Positions 1,239 to 55,723 of a stretch of DNA of 64,000 bases are shown piece by piece. The position numbers and the translations under genes were made by a program. Source of the DNA: Bacillota bacterium (GTDB taxonomy: Bacteria; Bacillota; Clostridia; Christensenellales; CAMQZB01). The DNA lies in NCBI GenBank assembly GCA_044426045.1, contig JAWXUX010000001.1:65816-129815 (forward strand), given 5' to 3'. Position 1 is the first letter of the stretch. The number at the start of each line of letters is the position of its first letter. A model generated the notes under the pieces. That model was not told the origin of the DNA and made no database searches. It saw only the letters and a list, made by a program, of their open reading frames with translations.

Positions 1239-1467
1239 TTGCGTTGCAATTTTATTAAGTGAAAAGTGAAAAGTGAAAAGTGAAAAGTGAAAAGTGTGGT
1301 AATGCACGCGGCTTTGCCTTGTGCTTTTCGATATAATAGTAAACAATAAAAGGGACGCAACTATTCAAAATGGGAGCGTTCCTATTTTACTGCCCAAATC
1401 AAATGGGGTGCACGAGCTTGCGAGTGCCTACCACACTTTTCACTTTTCACTTTTCACTTTTCACTTT
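1239..1467 (+). repeat. Nested-hairpin intergenic element, copy 1 (GTGAAAA-arm variant)
   Basis: Left mini-hairpin ATAAAATTGC/GCAATTTTAT. GTGAAAA x5 (1259-1293) faces TTTTCAC x4 (1437-1464). Inner boxes are TGTGGTAATGCAC and CGAGTGCCTACCACA. Shares its core with the copies at 6868, 32482 and 51150. Confidence 0.9.
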
Positions 1468-1496
1468 AAAAAAAGACCCCATCGGGGTCTTTTTTT
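1468..1496. terminator. Bidirectional intrinsic terminator
   Basis: A-run, stem AGACCCC (1474-1480) / GGGGTCT (1484-1490), T-run. Sits between the convergent + operon and the minus-strand response regulator (stop at 1495). Confidence 0.8.
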
Positions 1497-5218: not shown

Positions 5219-6862
5219 ATGACTGAATTAATGAACAAGACCGTCGGTCAGATGTTTGATGACACTGTATCGAAATTCCCACATAACCAGGCTGCTAAGT
5301 ATATCGAAATGGACTTTGATATGACTTATTCTGAACTGTCACACGAAGTTGACACATTTGCAAAATCTCTCCTCGCCCTCGGCTTCAAGAAGGGAGACCA
5401 CGTTGCAGTTTGGGCAACAAACTATCCACAATGGCTAGTTTTGATGCTTGCGACAGCAAAAGTTGGTATCGTTTTGGTAACGGTTAACACAAGCTATAAA
5501 ACAGCAGAATTCAAATATCTTATGAACCAATCAGAATCGAAAGGACTTTTTGTCTGCGACGGTTTGAAAGATATCGACTGCGAACAAACAATATATAACC
5601 TTTGTCCTGAAATGGAATCACAAGAAGAAGGCAGACTAGACCTTAAAGAACTTCCTTTCCTTACATGCGTTGTTTCGTTCGACAACAAATATCCAGGAAT
5701 GTATTCTTGGAACGAAATCAGAAAATATTCAAGAGAAATCTCTCATCAAGAATATCAAAAAGCAAAAGACGCTTGCCACCCAGATGACGTTATCAACATG
5801 CAATACACATCAGGCACAACAGGCTTTCCAAAAGGCGTTATGCTAACACACAACAACATCGTTAACAACGGTAAAACAATCGGCGACTGCATGGGTTTCA
5901 CTGAAAAAGATAGACTTTGCATTCAAGTTCCATTCTTCCACTGTTTTGGATTGGTTCTTGCAATCATGGCGAGTTTGACTCACGGAACAACAATGATTCC
6001 GCTTCTTTATTTCACACCAATGAAAGCAATGCACGTTATCCACTATGAAAAATGCACAGCAATCCACGGCGTTCCAACAATGTTTATCGCAATGCTTGAA
6101 CACCGCGACTTCAAAAAATATAACTTCAGCAGCCTAAGAACTGGTATCATGGCAGGTTCACCTTGTCCAGTTGATATCATGAAACGTGTGGTTGACGAAA
6201 TGAACATGAGTGAAATCACTATTACATACGGACAAACTGAAGCATCTCCTGGTTGCACGCAAACAACAATCCACGATTCTCTTGAAAAACGTGTTGAAAC
6301 TGTTGGACGCGCATTCCCATTCGTTGAAACAAAAATCGTCGACCCAGAAACTGGCGTTGAACTTGGAGCTGGCGAACCTGGTGAATTCTGTGCAAGAGGT
6401 TACAATATCATGAAAGGATACTATAACATGCCAGAAGCAACTGCCCAAGCAATTGATGCAGACGGCTGGCTTCACACTGGCGATATCGCAACAGTGGATG
6501 AAGAAGGCTACTACCGCATCACAGGCAGATTGAAAGACATGATCATCCGTGGTGGTGAAAATATCTATCCAAAAGAAATCGAAGAATTCATCTATTCAAT
6601 CCCTGGCGTTCAAGACGTTCAAGTTGTCGGCATGAAATCTGAAAAATACGGTGAAGAAGTTGCCGCTTTCGTCATTCCTAAAAAAGGCGAAAACATCACT
6701 TCAGCAGATATCAAACACTACGTCGGCGAAAATATGGCTCGTCACAAAATCCCAACCCTTGTTCACATGACAGATAAATTCCCAATGACAGCAAGCGGAA
6801 AAATCCAAAAATTCATCTTGCGCGAACTAGCAGATGAACTTTATTCAAAGGGAGTGAGATAA
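5219..6862 (+). CDS. AMP-dependent acyl-CoA synthetase/ligase
   Basis: MQYTSGTTGFPKGVMLTHNN AMP-binding motif, GYYNMPEAT, TGDIA..DEEGYYRITGRLKD, and SGKIQK at the C-terminus. RBS AGAGGT. Confidence 0.9.
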   Translation: MTELMNKTVGQMFDDTVSKFPHNQAAKYIEMDFDMTYSELSHEVDTFAKSLLALGFKKGDHVAVWATNYPQWLVLMLATAKVGIVLVTVNTSYKTAEFKYLMNQSESKGLFVCDGLKDIDCEQTIYNLCPEMESQEEGRLDLKELPFLTCVVSFDNKYPGMYSWNEIRKYSREISHQEYQKAKDACHPDDVINMQYTSGTTGFPKGVMLTHNNIVNNGKTIGDCMGFTEKDRLCIQVPFFHCFGLVLAIMASLTHGTTMIPLLYFTPMKAMHVIHYEKCTAIHGVPTMFIAMLEHRDFKKYNFSSLRTGIMAGSPCPVDIMKRVVDEMNMSEITITYGQTEASPGCTQTTIHDSLEKRVETVGRAFPFVETKIVDPETGVELGAGEPGEFCARGYNIMKGYYNMPEATAQAIDADGWLHTGDIATVDEEGYYRITGRLKDMIIRGGENIYPKEIEEFIYSIPGVQDVQVVGMKSEKYGEEVAAFVIPKKGENITSADIKHYVGENMARHKIPTLVHMTDKFPMTASGKIQKFILRELADELYSKGVR

Positions 6863-6867
6863 AAAAA

Positions 6868-7081
6868 TCGGGAACGCTTCGCGTTAAGTGAAAGGTGAAA
6901 GGTGAAAGGTGTGGTAATGCACTCGGTACCCTCGTGCTTTTCAATTATATTTGTAATCCATAATAGGGGCGTAACTATTCAAATAGGAGCGTCCCTATTT
7001 TACTGCCCAAATATAATGGGGTGCACGAGCAAAGCGAGTGCCTACCACACCTTTCACCTTTCACCTTTCACCTTTCACTTT
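6868..7081 (+). repeat. Nested-hairpin intergenic element, copy 2
   Basis: GGAACGCTTCGCGTT mini-hairpin. GTGAAAG x3 (6888-6908) faces CTTTCAC x4 (7051-7078). Box pair TGTGGTAATGCACTCG / CGAGTGCCTACCACA. ATTATATTTG/CAAATATAAT inner stem. Confidence 0.9.
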
Positions 7082-7161
7082 AAAAATATACCCCTCTCCC
7101 TCCGCACTCCTAACCCCCCCCATCATAAGCCCCCCCCTCCCTCTTATCACAAAAAAAGTTC

Positions 7162-15021: not shown

Positions 15022-15253
15022 AAAATACAATCACGTAAATAAAAAATATTAGCAAAAAAAGAAAATATAGGCACGAAGAATAAGAAAGTAAAAAACAAAA
15101 CAAAAATGAAAATACAACATATCGGCTTTTTTGCACCTAGCGAAAAAGCCGAAAATGCGTTTTAATAACACACACTTAATATAAATAAAAAATAACAAAC
15201 AAAGCAAACAAAGCAAACAAAATCAAGAAATAACAACAGGAAAAGGACAATAT

Positions 15254-17998: not shown

Positions 17999-18574
17999 AT
18001 GCCAAATAAAGAAGAAAAAACGCAAAAAAGCCTCTCGAGTGAAGAAAATTCTGCGATTGAAGCGTTGAAAGAGGCTAAAAAAACACTTTCGCGTGAAGAA
18101 AAATTTATGCTTGAAGCGTTGAAAGAGGCAAATAAAGCGCTTGCAAAAGACGAAGTGCCAATCGGTGCCGTTGTGGTTTTTGAAAACAAAATCATCGCAA
18201 GAGGTCACAACCAAAAGGAAAAAACGCAAATTGCAACAAAGCATGCCGAAGTTATCGCGATTGAAAAAGCGTGCAAAAAAGTTGGCAGTTGGAGGCTTTG
18301 TGATTGTGAACTTTTCGTGACACTCGAACCATGCCCAATGTGTGCCTCGCTTATAACCCAATCGCGGATTGAAAACCTTTATTATGGAGCAACGGATGAA
18401 AAGGGCGGTGGTGTTTCGCTGTTCGATATTTTCAATTGTGAAAAGCTAAATCACAAAACATACGTAGAAAGTGGTGTTTTAAATAACCAATGTTCGCAGA
18501 TTTTAAAAGATTATTTCAAAATGAAACGAGAAAGGAACAGACAAAAAAAATTGCAAAAAAAAAGTATGGAATAA
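17999..18574 (+). CDS. tadA: tRNA adenosine(34) deaminase with duplicated N-terminal helix and basic tail
   Basis: HAEVIAIEKA and TLEPCPMCA zinc motifs. AGGGGG RBS before the ATG at 17999. An internal ATG at 18107 would give a canonical-length protein. Confidence 0.9.
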   Translation: MPNKEEKTQKSLSSEENSAIEALKEAKKTLSREEKFMLEALKEANKALAKDEVPIGAVVVFENKIIARGHNQKEKTQIATKHAEVIAIEKACKKVGSWRLCDCELFVTLEPCPMCASLITQSRIENLYYGATDEKGGGVSLFDIFNCEKLNHKTYVESGVLNNQCSQILKDYFKMKRERNRQKKLQKKSME

Positions 18575-19860: not shown

Positions 19861-20126
19861 AGGTAATAGGTAAAATAGGTAATAGGTAATAGGTAATAGG
19901 TAATAGGTAATAGGTAATAGGTAATAGGTAATAATTGTGGTAGGCACTCGGCTTTGCCTCGTGCATACTATATTTGAAACTTTTTACTAAAACAGTTTAT
20001 TGCCACGTGAAGTGTTTGCTCTGATAATAAATATATAAATAATGGAAAGCACGAGCAACGCGAGTGCATTACCACAATTATTACCTATTACCTATTACCT
20101 ATTACCTTAAATCTTACCTATTACCT
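19861..20126 (-). repeat. Nested-hairpin intergenic element, copy 3 (inverted orientation, GGTAATA-arm variant)
   Basis: AGGTAAT x10 (19861-19932) faces ATTACCT x4 plus 2 degenerate units (20079-20126). The box pair is present as TGTGGTAGGCACTCG (left) and CGAGTGCATTACCACA (right), the reverse complement of the other copies. The core is divergent. Confidence 0.85.
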
Positions 20127-20166
20127 TAAATCGAAATACAAACTAGAACGCAAAAAGTAGGTATAT

Positions 20167-20685
20167 ATGTTAATAACAGGACTTGGTAACATAGGAAAAG
20201 AATATGAAAACACTCGCCACAACGCGGGTTTTATTGTCGTTGATAAATTTGCAGATAAGCTCGGGCTAAAAATTGATAAAAAAGATTGCAAAAGCAAAAT
20301 CGCTAGAAGAATGAAAGACGAGCTGATAATTCAAAAGCCGGAAACTTTCATGAATTTGTCTGGAAAGGCAGTGAAAGAGGCTATGGGCAAATTCCATTTT
20401 GAAGCTGACGAAATCATCATCGTGTATGACGATATTGATTTGCCACTTGGCACAATCAGGTTTCGCGAAAAGGGGAGCGCGGGAACGCACAACGGCATGA
20501 AAAGCATAATTGCCGAAATCGGCACGCAAGAGTTTGCAAGGCTCAGGATTGGGATTGGAAAACCGCCAGTGCCACAAATGGATCTCGCGGATTATGTGCT
20601 TGGTAAGTTTTCAAAAGATGAACTTGCAATCTTGGAAAAATCAGCCGATGAAGCAATCGATGTGTTGATGGCAAAAATCAAATAA
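20167..20685 (+). CDS. pth: Peptidyl-tRNA hydrolase
   Basis: GLGNIGKEYENTRHNAGF, FMNLSG and GTHNG motifs. Confidence 0.95.
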   Translation: MLITGLGNIGKEYENTRHNAGFIVVDKFADKLGLKIDKKDCKSKIARRMKDELIIQKPETFMNLSGKAVKEAMGKFHFEADEIIIVYDDIDLPLGTIRFREKGSAGTHNGMKSIIAEIGTQEFARLRIGIGKPPVPQMDLADYVLGKFSKDELAILEKSADEAIDVLMAKIK

Positions 20686-20802
20686 ATCAAAACAAATCCA
20701 ATAAAACAAACCAAACAAACAAACCAAACAAAGCAAGTATAAAATCAAAAATCAATTTTGATTTATAATAAAAAACAAAACTCTTGAAAAAAGCGGAGAA
20801 CT

Positions 20803-32481: not shown

Positions 32482-32694
32482 TCGCGTAGCGATTTTTATA
32501 AGTGAAAGGTGAAAGGTGAAAGGTGTGGTAATGCACTCGGTGCCCTCGTGCTTTTCAATTATATTTGTAAACAATAATAGGAACGTAGCTATTCAATAGG
32601 AACGTTCCTATTTTACTAGCCAAATATAATAGGATGCACGAGCAAAGCGAGTGCCTACCACACCTTTCACCTTTCACCTTTCACCTTTCACTTT
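32482..32694 (+). repeat. Nested-hairpin intergenic element, copy 4
   Basis: Mini-hairpin AAAAATCGC/GCGATTTTT. GTGAAAG x3 (32502-32522) faces CTTTCAC x4 (32664-32691). Boxes at 32524-32539 and 32648-32662. Perfect core palindrome ATAGGAACGTTCCTAT. Confidence 0.9.
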
Positions 32695-32705
32695 TAAAAA
32701 AGCGT

Positions 32706-32803
32706 CCCACACCCAAACTTCCACCCCAACCGCCCAAACGTGCCCACCCAAACTCCCACCCCAACCGCCCAAGCGTGCCCACCCAAACTTCCCCCCTCAC
32801 CCC
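32706..32803 (+). repeat. C-rich tandem repeat (about 35-bp unit x 2.7)
   Basis: CCCAC(AC)CCAAACTTCCACCCCAACCGCCCAAACGTG / CCCACCCAAACTCCCACCCCAACCGCCCAAGCGTG / CCCACCCAAACTTCCCCCCTCACCCC. Confidence 0.8.
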
Positions 32804-32806
32804 TTT

Positions 32807-32823
32807 GGTCAAAGAAAGTCTAA
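32807..32823 (+). promoter_or_regulatory. CtsR operator (distal)
   Basis: GGTCAAAGAAAGTCTAA matches the heptad direct-repeat consensus RGTCAAANANRGTCAAA at 15/16 defined positions. Confidence 0.6.
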
Positions 32824-44875: not shown

Positions 44876-44908
44876 AATTAAAAATTAAAAATTAAAAATT
44901 AAAAATTA
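44876..44908 (+). repeat. Tandem heptamer (AATTAAA) x about 4.7
   Basis: aattaaaaattaaaaattaaaaattaaaaatta lies between topA and trmFO. Confidence 0.8.
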
Positions 44909-44942
44909 TAGGGGCTTTGCCCTTGCAATATAAAGGAAATAA

Positions 44943-51149: not shown

Positions 51150-51366
51150 TGCGTGGAACGCTTTTTTAAAGTGAAAGGTGAAAGGTGAAAGGTGAAAGGT
51201 GTGGTAATGCACTCGCGTACCGCTCGTGCTTTTCAATTATATTTGTAACCACTTGTAGGAACGTAACTATTCAATAGGGGCGTTCCTTTTTTACTGTCCA
51301 AATATAATAGGGTGCACGAACGAAGCGAGTGCCTACCACACCTTTCACCTTTCACCTTTCACTTTT
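51150..51366 (+). repeat. Nested-hairpin intergenic element, copy 5
   Basis: TGCGTGGAACGCTTTTTT left extension. GTGAAAG x4 (51171-51198) faces CTTTCAC x3 (51342-51362). Box pair and ATTATATTTG/CAAATATAAT are present. Bracketed by AAGCGAAG direct repeats. Confidence 0.9.
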
Positions 51367-51404
51367 AAGCGAAGCTTTTCACTTAAAATTTGCTTTAAAT
51401 TCTC

Positions 51405-55216: not shown

Positions 55217-55577
55217 TGAAAAAGTGATGCAAGCATTCTCAAATCCACAAAACGTGGGAGAAATTGAAAACGCCGACGGCGTTGGACAAGTTGGCAACGT
55301 TACTTGTGGCGATATCATGCGTATCAGCTTGAAAATTGAAGATAACATCATCAAAGAAGCAAAGTTCAAAACTTTCGGATGTGCAGCAGCCGTTGCAACA
55401 AGTTCAACAGCAACCGAAATGATTATCGGTATGACAGTTGACGAAGCGGAAAAACTCACAAACGCAAAAGTCGTTGAAGCCCTCGAAGGTTTGCCACCAC
55501 AAAAAATCCATTGCTCTGTGCTTGCCGAAGAAGCAATCAAAGAAGCAATCGCGGATTACAGAAAAAATCACGCTTAA
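55209..55577 (+). CDS. nifU: Fe-S cluster assembly scaffold (NifU N-terminal/IscU type)
   Basis: NPQNVGEI..GNVTCGDIM..FKTFGCAAA..KIHCSVLA, with three conserved Cys. Confidence 0.93.
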   Translation: MYNEKVMQAFSNPQNVGEIENADGVGQVGNVTCGDIMRISLKIEDNIIKEAKFKTFGCAAAVATSSTATEMIIGMTVDEAEKLTNAKVVEALEGLPPQKIHCSVLAEEAIKEAIADYRKNHA

Positions 55578-55588
55578 TAAAAACAAAA

Positions 55589-55617
55589 GCAACCAAATAA
55601 AAATGGTTGTTTTTTTT
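55589..55617 (+). terminator. Intrinsic terminator
   Basis: CAACCA (55590-55595) / TGGTTG (55604-55609) plus T8. Confidence 0.7.
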
Positions 55618-55723
55618 ATTTTGCTTTTGACAAATACTAACACTCATTGGCAAATACTGACACCCCATAACCGCAAATAAATTCCCCACCTTTGCACATC
55701 ATATAACCAAGGGAGGTGCGGAT

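Follow-up and report, generated by a model that had tools for sequence, protein, structure and literature searches.

To our knowledge, elements of the REP/REPIN type (REP, repetitive extragenic palindrome) and their domesticated transposases have been studied almost entirely in Proteobacteria and cyanobacteria. Clusters of REPs in E. coli, known as BIMEs, bind gyrase and IHF. The STRR repeats of heterocystous cyanobacteria are tandem heptamer arrays, the eukaryotic Foldback (FB) transposons, among them those of Drosophila, are kilobase-sized and carry arm repeats of 10-31 bp, and the inverted terminal repeats (ITRs) of parvoviruses and adeno-associated virus (AAV) have arms kept perfectly complementary by hairpin transfer after a cut by an HUH nickase. 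REPINs are head-to-head REP dimers with conserved structured spacers, and REP dimers sometimes lie within longer palindromes, as in the GTAG-15 of Anabaena variabilis (PMC3116915; PMC3733652). A 2013 survey of GTAG repeats listed no Firmicutes as hosts (PMC3733652), and group 1 RAYTs occur in Clostridia (PMC5581495). Here we describe a family of ~215-bp intergenic repeats, five copies of which lie in a 64,000-nucleotide stretch of DNA (the window; positions 65,816 to 129,815 of contig JAWXUX010000001.1, assembly GCA_044426045.1) from a spore-forming member of a little-known, uncultured group of Bacillota. The family is previously undescribed and is best classed with the REP-doublet/MITE kind of element (MITE, miniature inverted-repeat transposable element), and we regard it, with moderate confidence, as a DNA repeat of REPIN architecture that moves or recombines but is not autonomous. 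The claim is that the family would work like a REPIN; membership of a RAYT-REPIN system is left aside.

An earlier note, made from the sequence alone, had proposed five copies of the repeat, and all of them are present (Table 1), each with two invariant boxes, TGTGGTAATGCAC on the left and GAGTGCCTACCACA on the right, 112-114 nt apart. The right box occurs five times in the window (at 1422, 7036, 19936 on the minus strand, 32649 and 51327) and has no match in 100 dinucleotide-preserving shuffles of it. From box to box, copies 2, 4 and 5 are 89-91% identical. The inverted arms of tandem heptamers also proved real: Tandem Repeats Finder recovers perfect or near-perfect arrays, (AAGTGAA)5.7 / (CACTTTT)4.9 in copy 1, (GTGAAAG)3.4-4.4 / (CACCTTT)4-5 in copies 2, 4 and 5, and (AGGTAAT)10.1 / (TATTACC)7.1 in copy 3. 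Across copies the heptamers are of the types AGTGAAA, GGTGAAA, AGGTAAT, AATTAAA and AGTGAAT. Copy 4 further contains a perfect 16-bp palindrome, ATAGGAACGTTCCTAT, as well as AATAGGAACGT repeated in the same direction with a spacing of 21 nt. As proposed, every copy is intergenic, with korC (the gene for the gamma subunit of a 2-oxoacid:ferredoxin oxidoreductase), the acyl-CoA ligase gene, glyA, prs and pth among the neighbours, and four of the five start 5-45 nt past a stop codon in sense orientation. Copy 3 departs from this setting, since it lies past the pth promoter and ahead of the Shine-Dalgarno sequence. After copy 1 comes a strong terminator that acts in both directions (1474-1499). 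When a 15-copy alignment was turned into a covariance model, the model found no sixth copy in the window and two more in the 10 kb upstream, giving seven copies in 74 kb of this genome, spaced roughly evenly at one per 10-13 kb.

Table 1. Copies of the repeat in the window and anatomy of the reference copy (copy 2). UTR, untranslated region.
Feature	Position	Strand	Remarks
Copy 1	1239..1473	+	A-type; arms AGTGAAA; after korC
Copy 2 (reference)	6868-7085 (as folded)	+	after the acyl-CoA ligase stop codon at 6860-6862
Copy 3	19861..20132	-	divergent interior; arms AGGTAAT, 10 units versus about 4; in the pth 5' UTR
Copy 4	32482..32700	+	A-type; arms GGTGAAA; after a 241-aa gene, upstream of ctsR-clpC
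Copy 5	51150..51372	+	A-type; arms GGTGAAA; between glyA and spoVAC
Small flanking hairpin	6873..6885		AACGC-TTC-GCGTT; between the ligase stop codon and copy 2
Left arm, copy 2	6886..6909	+	terminal unit AAGTGAAAG, then GTGAAAG repeats
Left head and left REP-like imperfect palindrome	6910..6937	+	TGTGGTAA-T-GCACTCGG-TAC-CCTCGTGC
Left strand of U-rich/AT helix	6938..6953	+	TTTTCAATTATATTTG; pairs with 7008-7022, several G-U pairs
Apex extended hairpin	6963..7002	+	ATAGGGGCG ... CGTCCCTAT; inner mini-stem CTAT/ATAG, then TTTT
Right strand of AT helix	7008..7022	+	CAAATATAAT plus GGGGT
Right REP-like palindrome and head	7023..7049	-	minus-strand reading TGTGGTAG-GCACTCGC-TTT-GCTCGTGC
Right arm	7050..7086	+	(CCTTTCA)n; ends in CACTTTAAAAA
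Apex U-runs in the window	about 7000, 32612, 51290	+	

Central to the classification is the build of the two halves between the arms. In a 22-copy alignment, the left half reads TGTGGTAA-T-GCACTCGC-GTT-GCTCGTGC on the plus strand and the right half TGTGGTAG-GCACTCGC-TTT-GCTCGTGC on the minus strand, so that both have the form of a head, GTAG or GTAA, followed by a palindrome GCAC..GC-NNN-GC..GTGC, and they face each other, heads outward, across a conserved, partly self-complementary spacer of ~95 nt. In A-type copies the right head reads GTAG-GCAC... (minus strand) and the left GTAA-T-GCAC...; B-type copies have GTAA on both sides, and type D copies have GTCT and GTAT. The earlier note had left the choice between a MITE, a REP/BIME-like module and a structured RNA of the 3' UTR; because the halves are REP-like palindromes in an inverted doublet, the first two fit best. 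A stand-alone structured RNA gene finds no support. The three nested helices that it had drawn inside the arms are found in copies 2, 4 and 5, but the innermost pairs weakly in copy 1 and takes another form in copy 3. Its asymmetric core likewise stands in copies 2, 4 and 5, except that the two small hairpins assigned to it are one extended hairpin followed by a T-run.

Most copies adjoin a small GC hairpin with the triloop GAA, GTA, AAA or TTC, often with a T-run, and we infer that these hairpins are the native terminators of the upstream genes. The one beside the reference copy is terminator-like on the minus strand only (AACGCGAAGCGTT then a T-run). Such hairpins had been described as confined to the left side, which does not hold: copy 5 has AAGCGAAGCTTTT on its right, and the terminator that follows copy 1 is on that side too. 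Two tracts rich in C and poor in G lie directly 3' of copies on the plus strand, at 7090-7150 after copy 2 and at 32700-32810 after copy 4, the latter holding a 35-nt unit 2.5 times. Speculatively, these tracts could serve as entry sites for Rho, or they could represent one more repeat module. Within the window there is also a solo array, (AATTAAA)4.7 with the mini-hairpin GGGGCTTTGCCC, at 44876-44925 (+) between topA and the next gene; it has neither core nor inverted partner and is missing at the matched site of the sister species, where AATTAAA is the heptamer of most arms.

The window is a housekeeping region (kor genes, acyl-CoA ligase, recN, aro genes, prs-pth-mfd, ctsR-clpC, topA, hisS, glyA, spoVA and isc genes), and its genes lie almost all on the plus strand, where the cumulative GC skew rises. 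Logan contigs of SRR26557936 and SRR26557943 are identical to it, and the metagenome-assembled genomes (MAGs) GCA_044426065.1 and GCA_044426025.1, the sources of the loci L026 and L027, share 97.8-99.6% identity with it. The sister MAG 'Bacillota bacterium FM_57_G124_V' (GCA_044426085.1; hereafter FM_57) supplied the loci L001-L010, L015 and L024; L001-L010 (62 kb) were picked because copies were present there. All source genomes are metagenome-assembled. Within the clade, Mfd identity to the window is 97%, 86% and 78%, and it falls to 47% in the next homologue, which leaves the clade isolated.

The covariance model gives 24 matches in ~107 kb of FM_57, 22 of them in L001-L010, two in L024 and none in L015. 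The family has further copies in the same genome and in relatives, and the ground for refutation that the note had named, a failure to find any, therefore does not hold. Both boxes are unchanged in the 12 exact-match FM_57 copies, and no synteny common to the window genes and the FM_57 loci L001-L010 was found. A scan for the two-box pattern in one genome per species returned 12 true matches, all in FM_57; beyond it, two metagenome and two genome matches (L007, L008, L013, L014) were judged to be chance, and viral contigs gave none. In the genome, metagenome and viral scans the family is thus confined to one isolated clade of uncultured Bacillota, in which independent assemblies carry it (GCA_044426065.1, GCA_044426025.1, GCA_044426085.1, GCA_028748345.1, GCA_028748465.1 and Logan runs). 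Rfam (15) has no match in the whole window at the gathering score and gives only chance-level matches (E > 2) on the element at E <= 10; blastn against phage and plasmid collections returned nothing or heptamer-repeat noise only, and literature searches found no description of this repeat family, all in line with the novelty that the note had suspected.

Two kinds of satellite observation come from FM_57. In the loci L001-L010 and L024, extra short palindromic modules (CAGGCTTCGCTCTGCGAGCTCGAT, GTCGCTAGCGTAGCGTACGCCTGAA, GTCGACTAGATACAAA) lie within or outside the heptamer arms, sometimes complementary on both, for example in the flanks of L010:7246-7394 and L005:3152-3304, and one such module stands alone at the empty glyA-spoVAC site (L015:11262-11292). 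At L015:15500-15580, TTTGGTAATGCAC is followed by a hairpin, AAGGCGAAGCTTTGTGC, with a 14-nt direct repeat ahead; the stretch looks like a decayed half-element or a solo REP, and its counterpart in the window (55577-55720) holds a normal terminator only. A third C-rich, G-poor tract lies 3' of one FM_57 copy (L005:3387-3436), and the other intergenic regions of the loci scanned hold no comparable one.

Sites matched to those of the window were obtained with near homologues of glyA, the acyl-CoA ligase, mfd and korC as guides. They reveal gain and loss of copies between close relatives, as well as flipping and swapping, under a family consensus that persists from species to species; the element is a dynamic dispersed repeat rather than a fixed feature of particular genes. 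Between prs and pth, L025 (Mfd 97%) and the pair L022 and L023 (Mfd 86%) have nothing at the site of copy 3, the intergenic region there being 157 nt long and free of the element. FM_57 (L024) carries an A-type copy there in the opposite orientation and elsewhere in the gap, past the prs terminator and ahead of the pth promoter, and so represents an independent filling. Between glyA and spoVAC, L017 (glyA 96%) has the left flank and arm as in the window and then the reverse complement of the right box, and therefore a flipped interior; in FM_57 and L018 the element is absent and ordinary terminators are found instead. At the ligase site, L020 (95% identical) has the left box, the left hairpin and a different apex hairpin, without the right half or the C-rich tract, and is half-decayed, and L021 (80%) lacks the element.

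At the korC site, copy 1 is present in the window and in L027, and a different subfamily occupies the site in L026 between flanks that are 97.8% identical. The L026 copy has the same outermost termini as that of the window, and in its arms every heptamer has changed alike, from AGTGAAA to AGTGAAT on the left and from TTTCACT to ATTCACT on the right; L021 has an ordinary terminator only. A second copy with AGGTAAT arms lies at L026:6417-6574, 4 kb upstream of the window. One FM_57 copy has arms that are not complementary and is on that account a chimera. Short-read contigs break off inside the arms.

How, then, does the family compare with described systems? Like the RAYT-mobilised REPINs of Pseudomonas and Nostoc and the BIMEs of E. 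coli, it has inverted, invariant ends over short imperfect palindromes with a head that resembles the GTAG type, a conserved spacer with compensatory changes, and the capacity to form a long hairpin as single-stranded DNA or mRNA; it is likewise extragenic, mostly downstream of genes, present in many copies and variable between relatives. It differs in its host, an uncultured Bacillota clade, in a longer spacer that includes a terminator-like apex, in the inverted tandem heptamer arrays that flank the doublet and differ between copies, in having GTAG in one head only, and in the nested palindromic modules of the FM_57 arms (such as CAGGCTTCGCTCTGCGAGCTCGAT); apex, arrays and modules all go beyond the published description of REPINs. 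With MITEs of the Correia/NEMIS, ERIC, RUP and BOX kinds, which are co-transcribed, fold in mRNA and can affect termination or mRNA stability, it shares small size, lack of coding capacity, inverted ends and a dispersed, intergenic, often 3' UTR, location (reviewed in PMC10969869). The terminal inverted repeats of those MITEs, however, are fixed and correspond to a parent insertion sequence (IS), and their target duplications are short and defined. In the present family the ends vary, conservation lies in boxes inside the element, and neither a parent IS nor a clean duplication was found.

The arms recall other systems. Those of FB transposons are also inverted, built of short tandem repeats whose number varies by copy and by arm, and snap into a hairpin (cf. 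PMC3169594); the likeness is one of form and implies no homology. As in the STRR and TAACTGA arrays, the heptamers are intergenic, run as 2-10 direct units and differ by locus and species; those arrays lie upstream of start codons, whereas the heptamers here are paired, inverted arrays around a conserved core. The TAACTGA repeats of Beggiatoaceae and cyanobacteria are direct, with one of 170 sets inverted (PMC4679880). With parvovirus and AAV ITRs the family shares a long stem with small internal palindromes and an interior found in two orientations (flip and flop), a mechanistic analogy only, given that ITRs are ends of linear viral genomes and not chromosomal repeats. Overall, its unusual traits are the concertedly evolving heptamer arms, the terminator-like apex, and the flipping and swapping at fixed sites.

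The rod of about 90 bp that the earlier note had envisaged is borne out by copy 2, which folds nearly continuously. As RNA (6868-7085), its plus strand reaches -114.6 kcal/mol against -50.6 +/- 4.1 for shuffles (z -15.7) and its minus strand -106.9 kcal/mol; folded as DNA, the plus strand reaches -68 kcal/mol (z -13.9). Across the folds computed, z ranges from -14 to -17.5. When the 15-copy alignment was scored against a hand-drawn structure, standard pairs filled 89.1% of cells, compared with 35-48% in controls whose partners were slid by 1-3 columns, and 11 pairs showed changes on both sides. In A-type and divergent copies a single half alone folds at -2.5 to -9.7 kcal/mol; in A-type copies the half-to-half duplex (-22 to -35 kcal/mol) is preferred to two local hairpins (-8 to -13 kcal/mol). 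The B-type left hairpin, GCATGGGC-TTC-GCCCTATGC, has compensatory changes on both sides of its stem, and in three of six B-type copies local folding wins, giving a four-way junction.

The fold also carries a strand signal. In the modelled helices, G-U outnumber A-C pairs, the equivalent of G-U on the opposite strand, by 49 to 23 on the modelled (sense) strand, and by 25 to 5 in the U-run helix, where a constant UUUUC faces a variable purine-rich partner; moreover, the arms of one FM_57 copy (L006) differ by a G-T wobble in all six units. This excess and the L006 wobbles favour a fold that forms on one given strand, whether RNA or single-stranded DNA. The apex of A-type copies, UAGGAACG...CGUUCCU, is followed by 4-9 U and has no preceding A-run; B-type copies have other stems with an A-run ahead and a U-run behind, and in type D and in the L020 variant the stems are unrelated in sequence and T-runs follow them once more. 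By its sequence pattern, a G+C hairpin followed by a U-run, the apex resembles a plus-strand intrinsic terminator, although a simple scanner limited to loops of 3-8 nt passes over it. Where the neighbouring genes are co-directional, 10 A-type copies stand in sense and 1 in antisense orientation, as against 2 and 5 for B-type and divergent copies; one copy is located in a divergent promoter region. The counts fit an A-type apex that works in one direction and a B-type apex that works in two, and they equally fit single-strand transposition tied to the direction of replication.

It is at this point that the strongest rival has to be weighed, namely a role at the RNA level. On this account the repeat, transcribed together with the gene ahead of it, is a functional module of mRNA 3' ends, whose apex terminates transcription and whose stem protects the 3' end or feeds a double-strand RNase, with copies spreading or persisting as portable terminators or stabilisers; we consider it rather unlikely, and it may well coexist with mobility. 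The sense setting of four window copies just past stop codons, the orientation of the A-type copies and the G-U excess on the sense strand all speak for it, as do an apex hairpin and T-run kept across subfamilies with unrelated stems. The glyA-spoVAC and korC sites that lack the element have ordinary terminators, and at the window's glyA and ligase sites no terminator other than the element is obvious. Further, A-type interiors are 83-92% identical between species, as compared with 89-91% within one genome, in the face of large coding divergence, which points either to strong constraint on the sequence of the element or to recent exchange. The same account sits poorly with the flipped interior at the glyA site of a close relative, with copy 3 and most B-type copies being antisense, with the copy in a divergent promoter region, and with the small terminator-like hairpin that often already lies ahead of the element. 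An apex that terminated efficiently would leave the right half untranscribed, so that no rod could form; moreover, because presence varies at matched sites, no gene depends on the element, and no Rfam family matches it. A stand-alone RNA gene is not supported, given that the interior is flipped at one matched site, that copies come and go, and that no promoter is found within the element by consensus scan (the TATAAT in its innermost nested helix has no -35 partner).

The remaining explanations concern the DNA itself. A bacterial foldback transposon with functional arms, regenerated from each other and guiding insertion by pairing of the arm heptamer with a matching target, seems to us unlikely, though if true it would explain through hairpin-templated copying both the concerted change of the arms and the flipped interiors, and an altered 7-nt repeat would retarget the element. 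The lead for such arm-guided targeting comes from copy 3 only, a single case in which the arm heptamer AGGTAAT equals TAGGTAATA at the empty site, in the Shine-Dalgarno region of pth. Still less probable, in our view, is a binding site in double-stranded DNA at which the boxes, the 16-bp palindrome and the heptamer arrays recruit a nucleoid, topology or regulatory protein. Boxes that stay invariant amid varying sequence, the palindrome and spaced repeat of copy 4 and the roughly even distribution along the genome are what such a site would show; however, the heptamers differ between copies, so that no single sequence-specific array binder fits, the apex palindrome is swapped for unrelated stems in other subfamilies, and the G-U bias, like the compensatory changes, speaks for a folded single strand and not for recognition of a duplex. 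The operator heptad of CtsR, reportedly GGTCAAA spaced at 10 nt (Derre et al. 1999), resembles the GGTGAAA arms in sequence and has the wrong period (10 against 7), and since the arm heptamers vary, CtsR operator arrays were set aside. A plausible CtsR box, GGTCAAA-GAA-AGTCTAA, does lie at 32807-32823 upstream of the ctsR-clpC operon; judged by sequence it is probably an ordinary autoregulatory site, its likeness to GGTGAAA being coincidental. Finally, we give next to no credence to chance similarity or an artefact of metagenome assembly or binning. It is true that all source genomes are metagenome-assembled and that repeats often cause misassembly, but independent assemblies from different projects carry the family with agreeing flanks, and neither the right-box count nor the folding scores are matched by shuffled sequence.

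Several narrower identities were considered and rejected. The attC sites of integrons have core sites R'' and R' (RYYYAAC ... GTTRRRY) and extrahelical bases, and belong to gene cassettes moved by IntI; here GTTAAGT is confined to copy 2, at its left end, the elements sit among housekeeping genes whose synteny is conserved, and there is no integron integrase. Retron msr-msd, 6S RNA and IS605/IscB guide RNAs have no family match and the wrong context. Mimicry of Shine-Dalgarno or anti-Shine-Dalgarno sequences would suit (AAAGGTG)n and (CACCTTT)n and does not suit AATTAAA or AGTGAAA arms. Arms derived from the target are ruled out by the second AGGTAAT-armed copy. An IS-derived MITE does not agree with outer arms of five heptamer types, internal conserved boxes and the absence of IS elements from every locus inspected.

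Returning to the reading as a mobile or recombining repeat of REPIN architecture, the moving unit would be the whole ~215-bp element, landing beside terminator hairpins at gene 3' ends; the arms are counted in, given that copies 2, 4 and 5 share arms as well as interior and that two copies have AGGTAAT arms. Movement would proceed through one strand in folded form, recognised by an enzyme whose gene lies elsewhere in the genome, for which a RAYT-type Y1/HUH transposase is, by analogy, the leading and unproven candidate. Slippage and arm-to-arm copying, by template switching or by hairpin transfer after a nick, would keep the arms complementary, spread a mutated heptamer through both and occasionally flip the interior. 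Sense copies at gene ends would be tolerated or mildly useful owing to the terminator-like apex with its T-run, and they would be transcribed into 3' UTRs and may stop transcription.

Several points weigh against this reading. Neither the window nor the 51 open reading frames (ORFs) around the 22 FM_57 copies of L001-L010 include a transposase, and none appears in the Pfam lists of the other loci, ~0.25 Mb having been inspected in all; within it no RAYT (Pfam PF01797) was found. GTAG stands in one of the two A-type heads, and the other subfamilies have GTAA, GTCT or GTAT. Matched sites gave neither a clean target-site duplication nor a clean footprint of excision: the one clean filled and empty pair, that of copy 3, has an imperfect direct duplication of ~30 nt (20/30 identical) or, alternatively, one of ~13 nt, AAAA(G)TAGGTAATA, blurred by the heptamer array. 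The similarity of interiors between species could mean a cellular function under purifying selection, strand-biased mutation could account for part of the G-U excess, and the orientation bias cannot separate transcription from replication, because nearly all genes are on the leading strand.

Among the genes near the copies, those bracketed by two inverted copies are housekeeping in nature (upp, phoU, a metallo-beta-lactamase and an HD-type hydrolase) and were discarded as candidate enzymes. The sole recombinase seen, a phage-type tyrosine integrase (L002:5553-6656), lies about 1 kb from a single copy and was judged coincidental; that copy is the only antisense A-type copy and its right arm is truncated, which may reflect the arrival of an integrative element in the repeat or beside it. 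A strain-specific ORF of 875 aa (L027:2668-5295) matches nothing in Pfam, PADLOC or PDB and looks secreted; it has its own promoter and a start resembling a signal peptide, is inserted between the thioredoxin and OGG genes, and is missing in L026.

Other repeats in the window are of different kinds. The 5' part of a deaminase gene (17999-18574; domains dCMP_cyt_deam_1 and MafB19-deam) contains a 54-nt tandem duplication at 18022-18136 (2.2 copies, 81% matches), and its product has 191 aa as against 172-175 aa in L022 and L024. Low-complexity repeats rich in A and C, of the types AAACAAAGC and AAATCAAAC, are found between genes at 15181-15225 and 20675-20750, upstream of dtd and mfd.

For the genomes that carry them, these elements break short-read assemblies. 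They also equip the ends of housekeeping operons with a terminator-like hairpin and, where transcription reads through, with 90 bp of double-stranded RNA. The family displays insertion polymorphism, flipped interiors, swaps of subfamily at one site and concerted evolution of the arms directly in sequence, whereas such processes are as a rule inferred, which makes it a good natural system for learning how hairpin repeats are copied and stay palindromic. Since work on REP/REPIN-type elements has centred almost entirely on Proteobacteria and cyanobacteria, the picture would widen with a REPIN-like family from a deep lineage of uncultured Bacillota that form spores.

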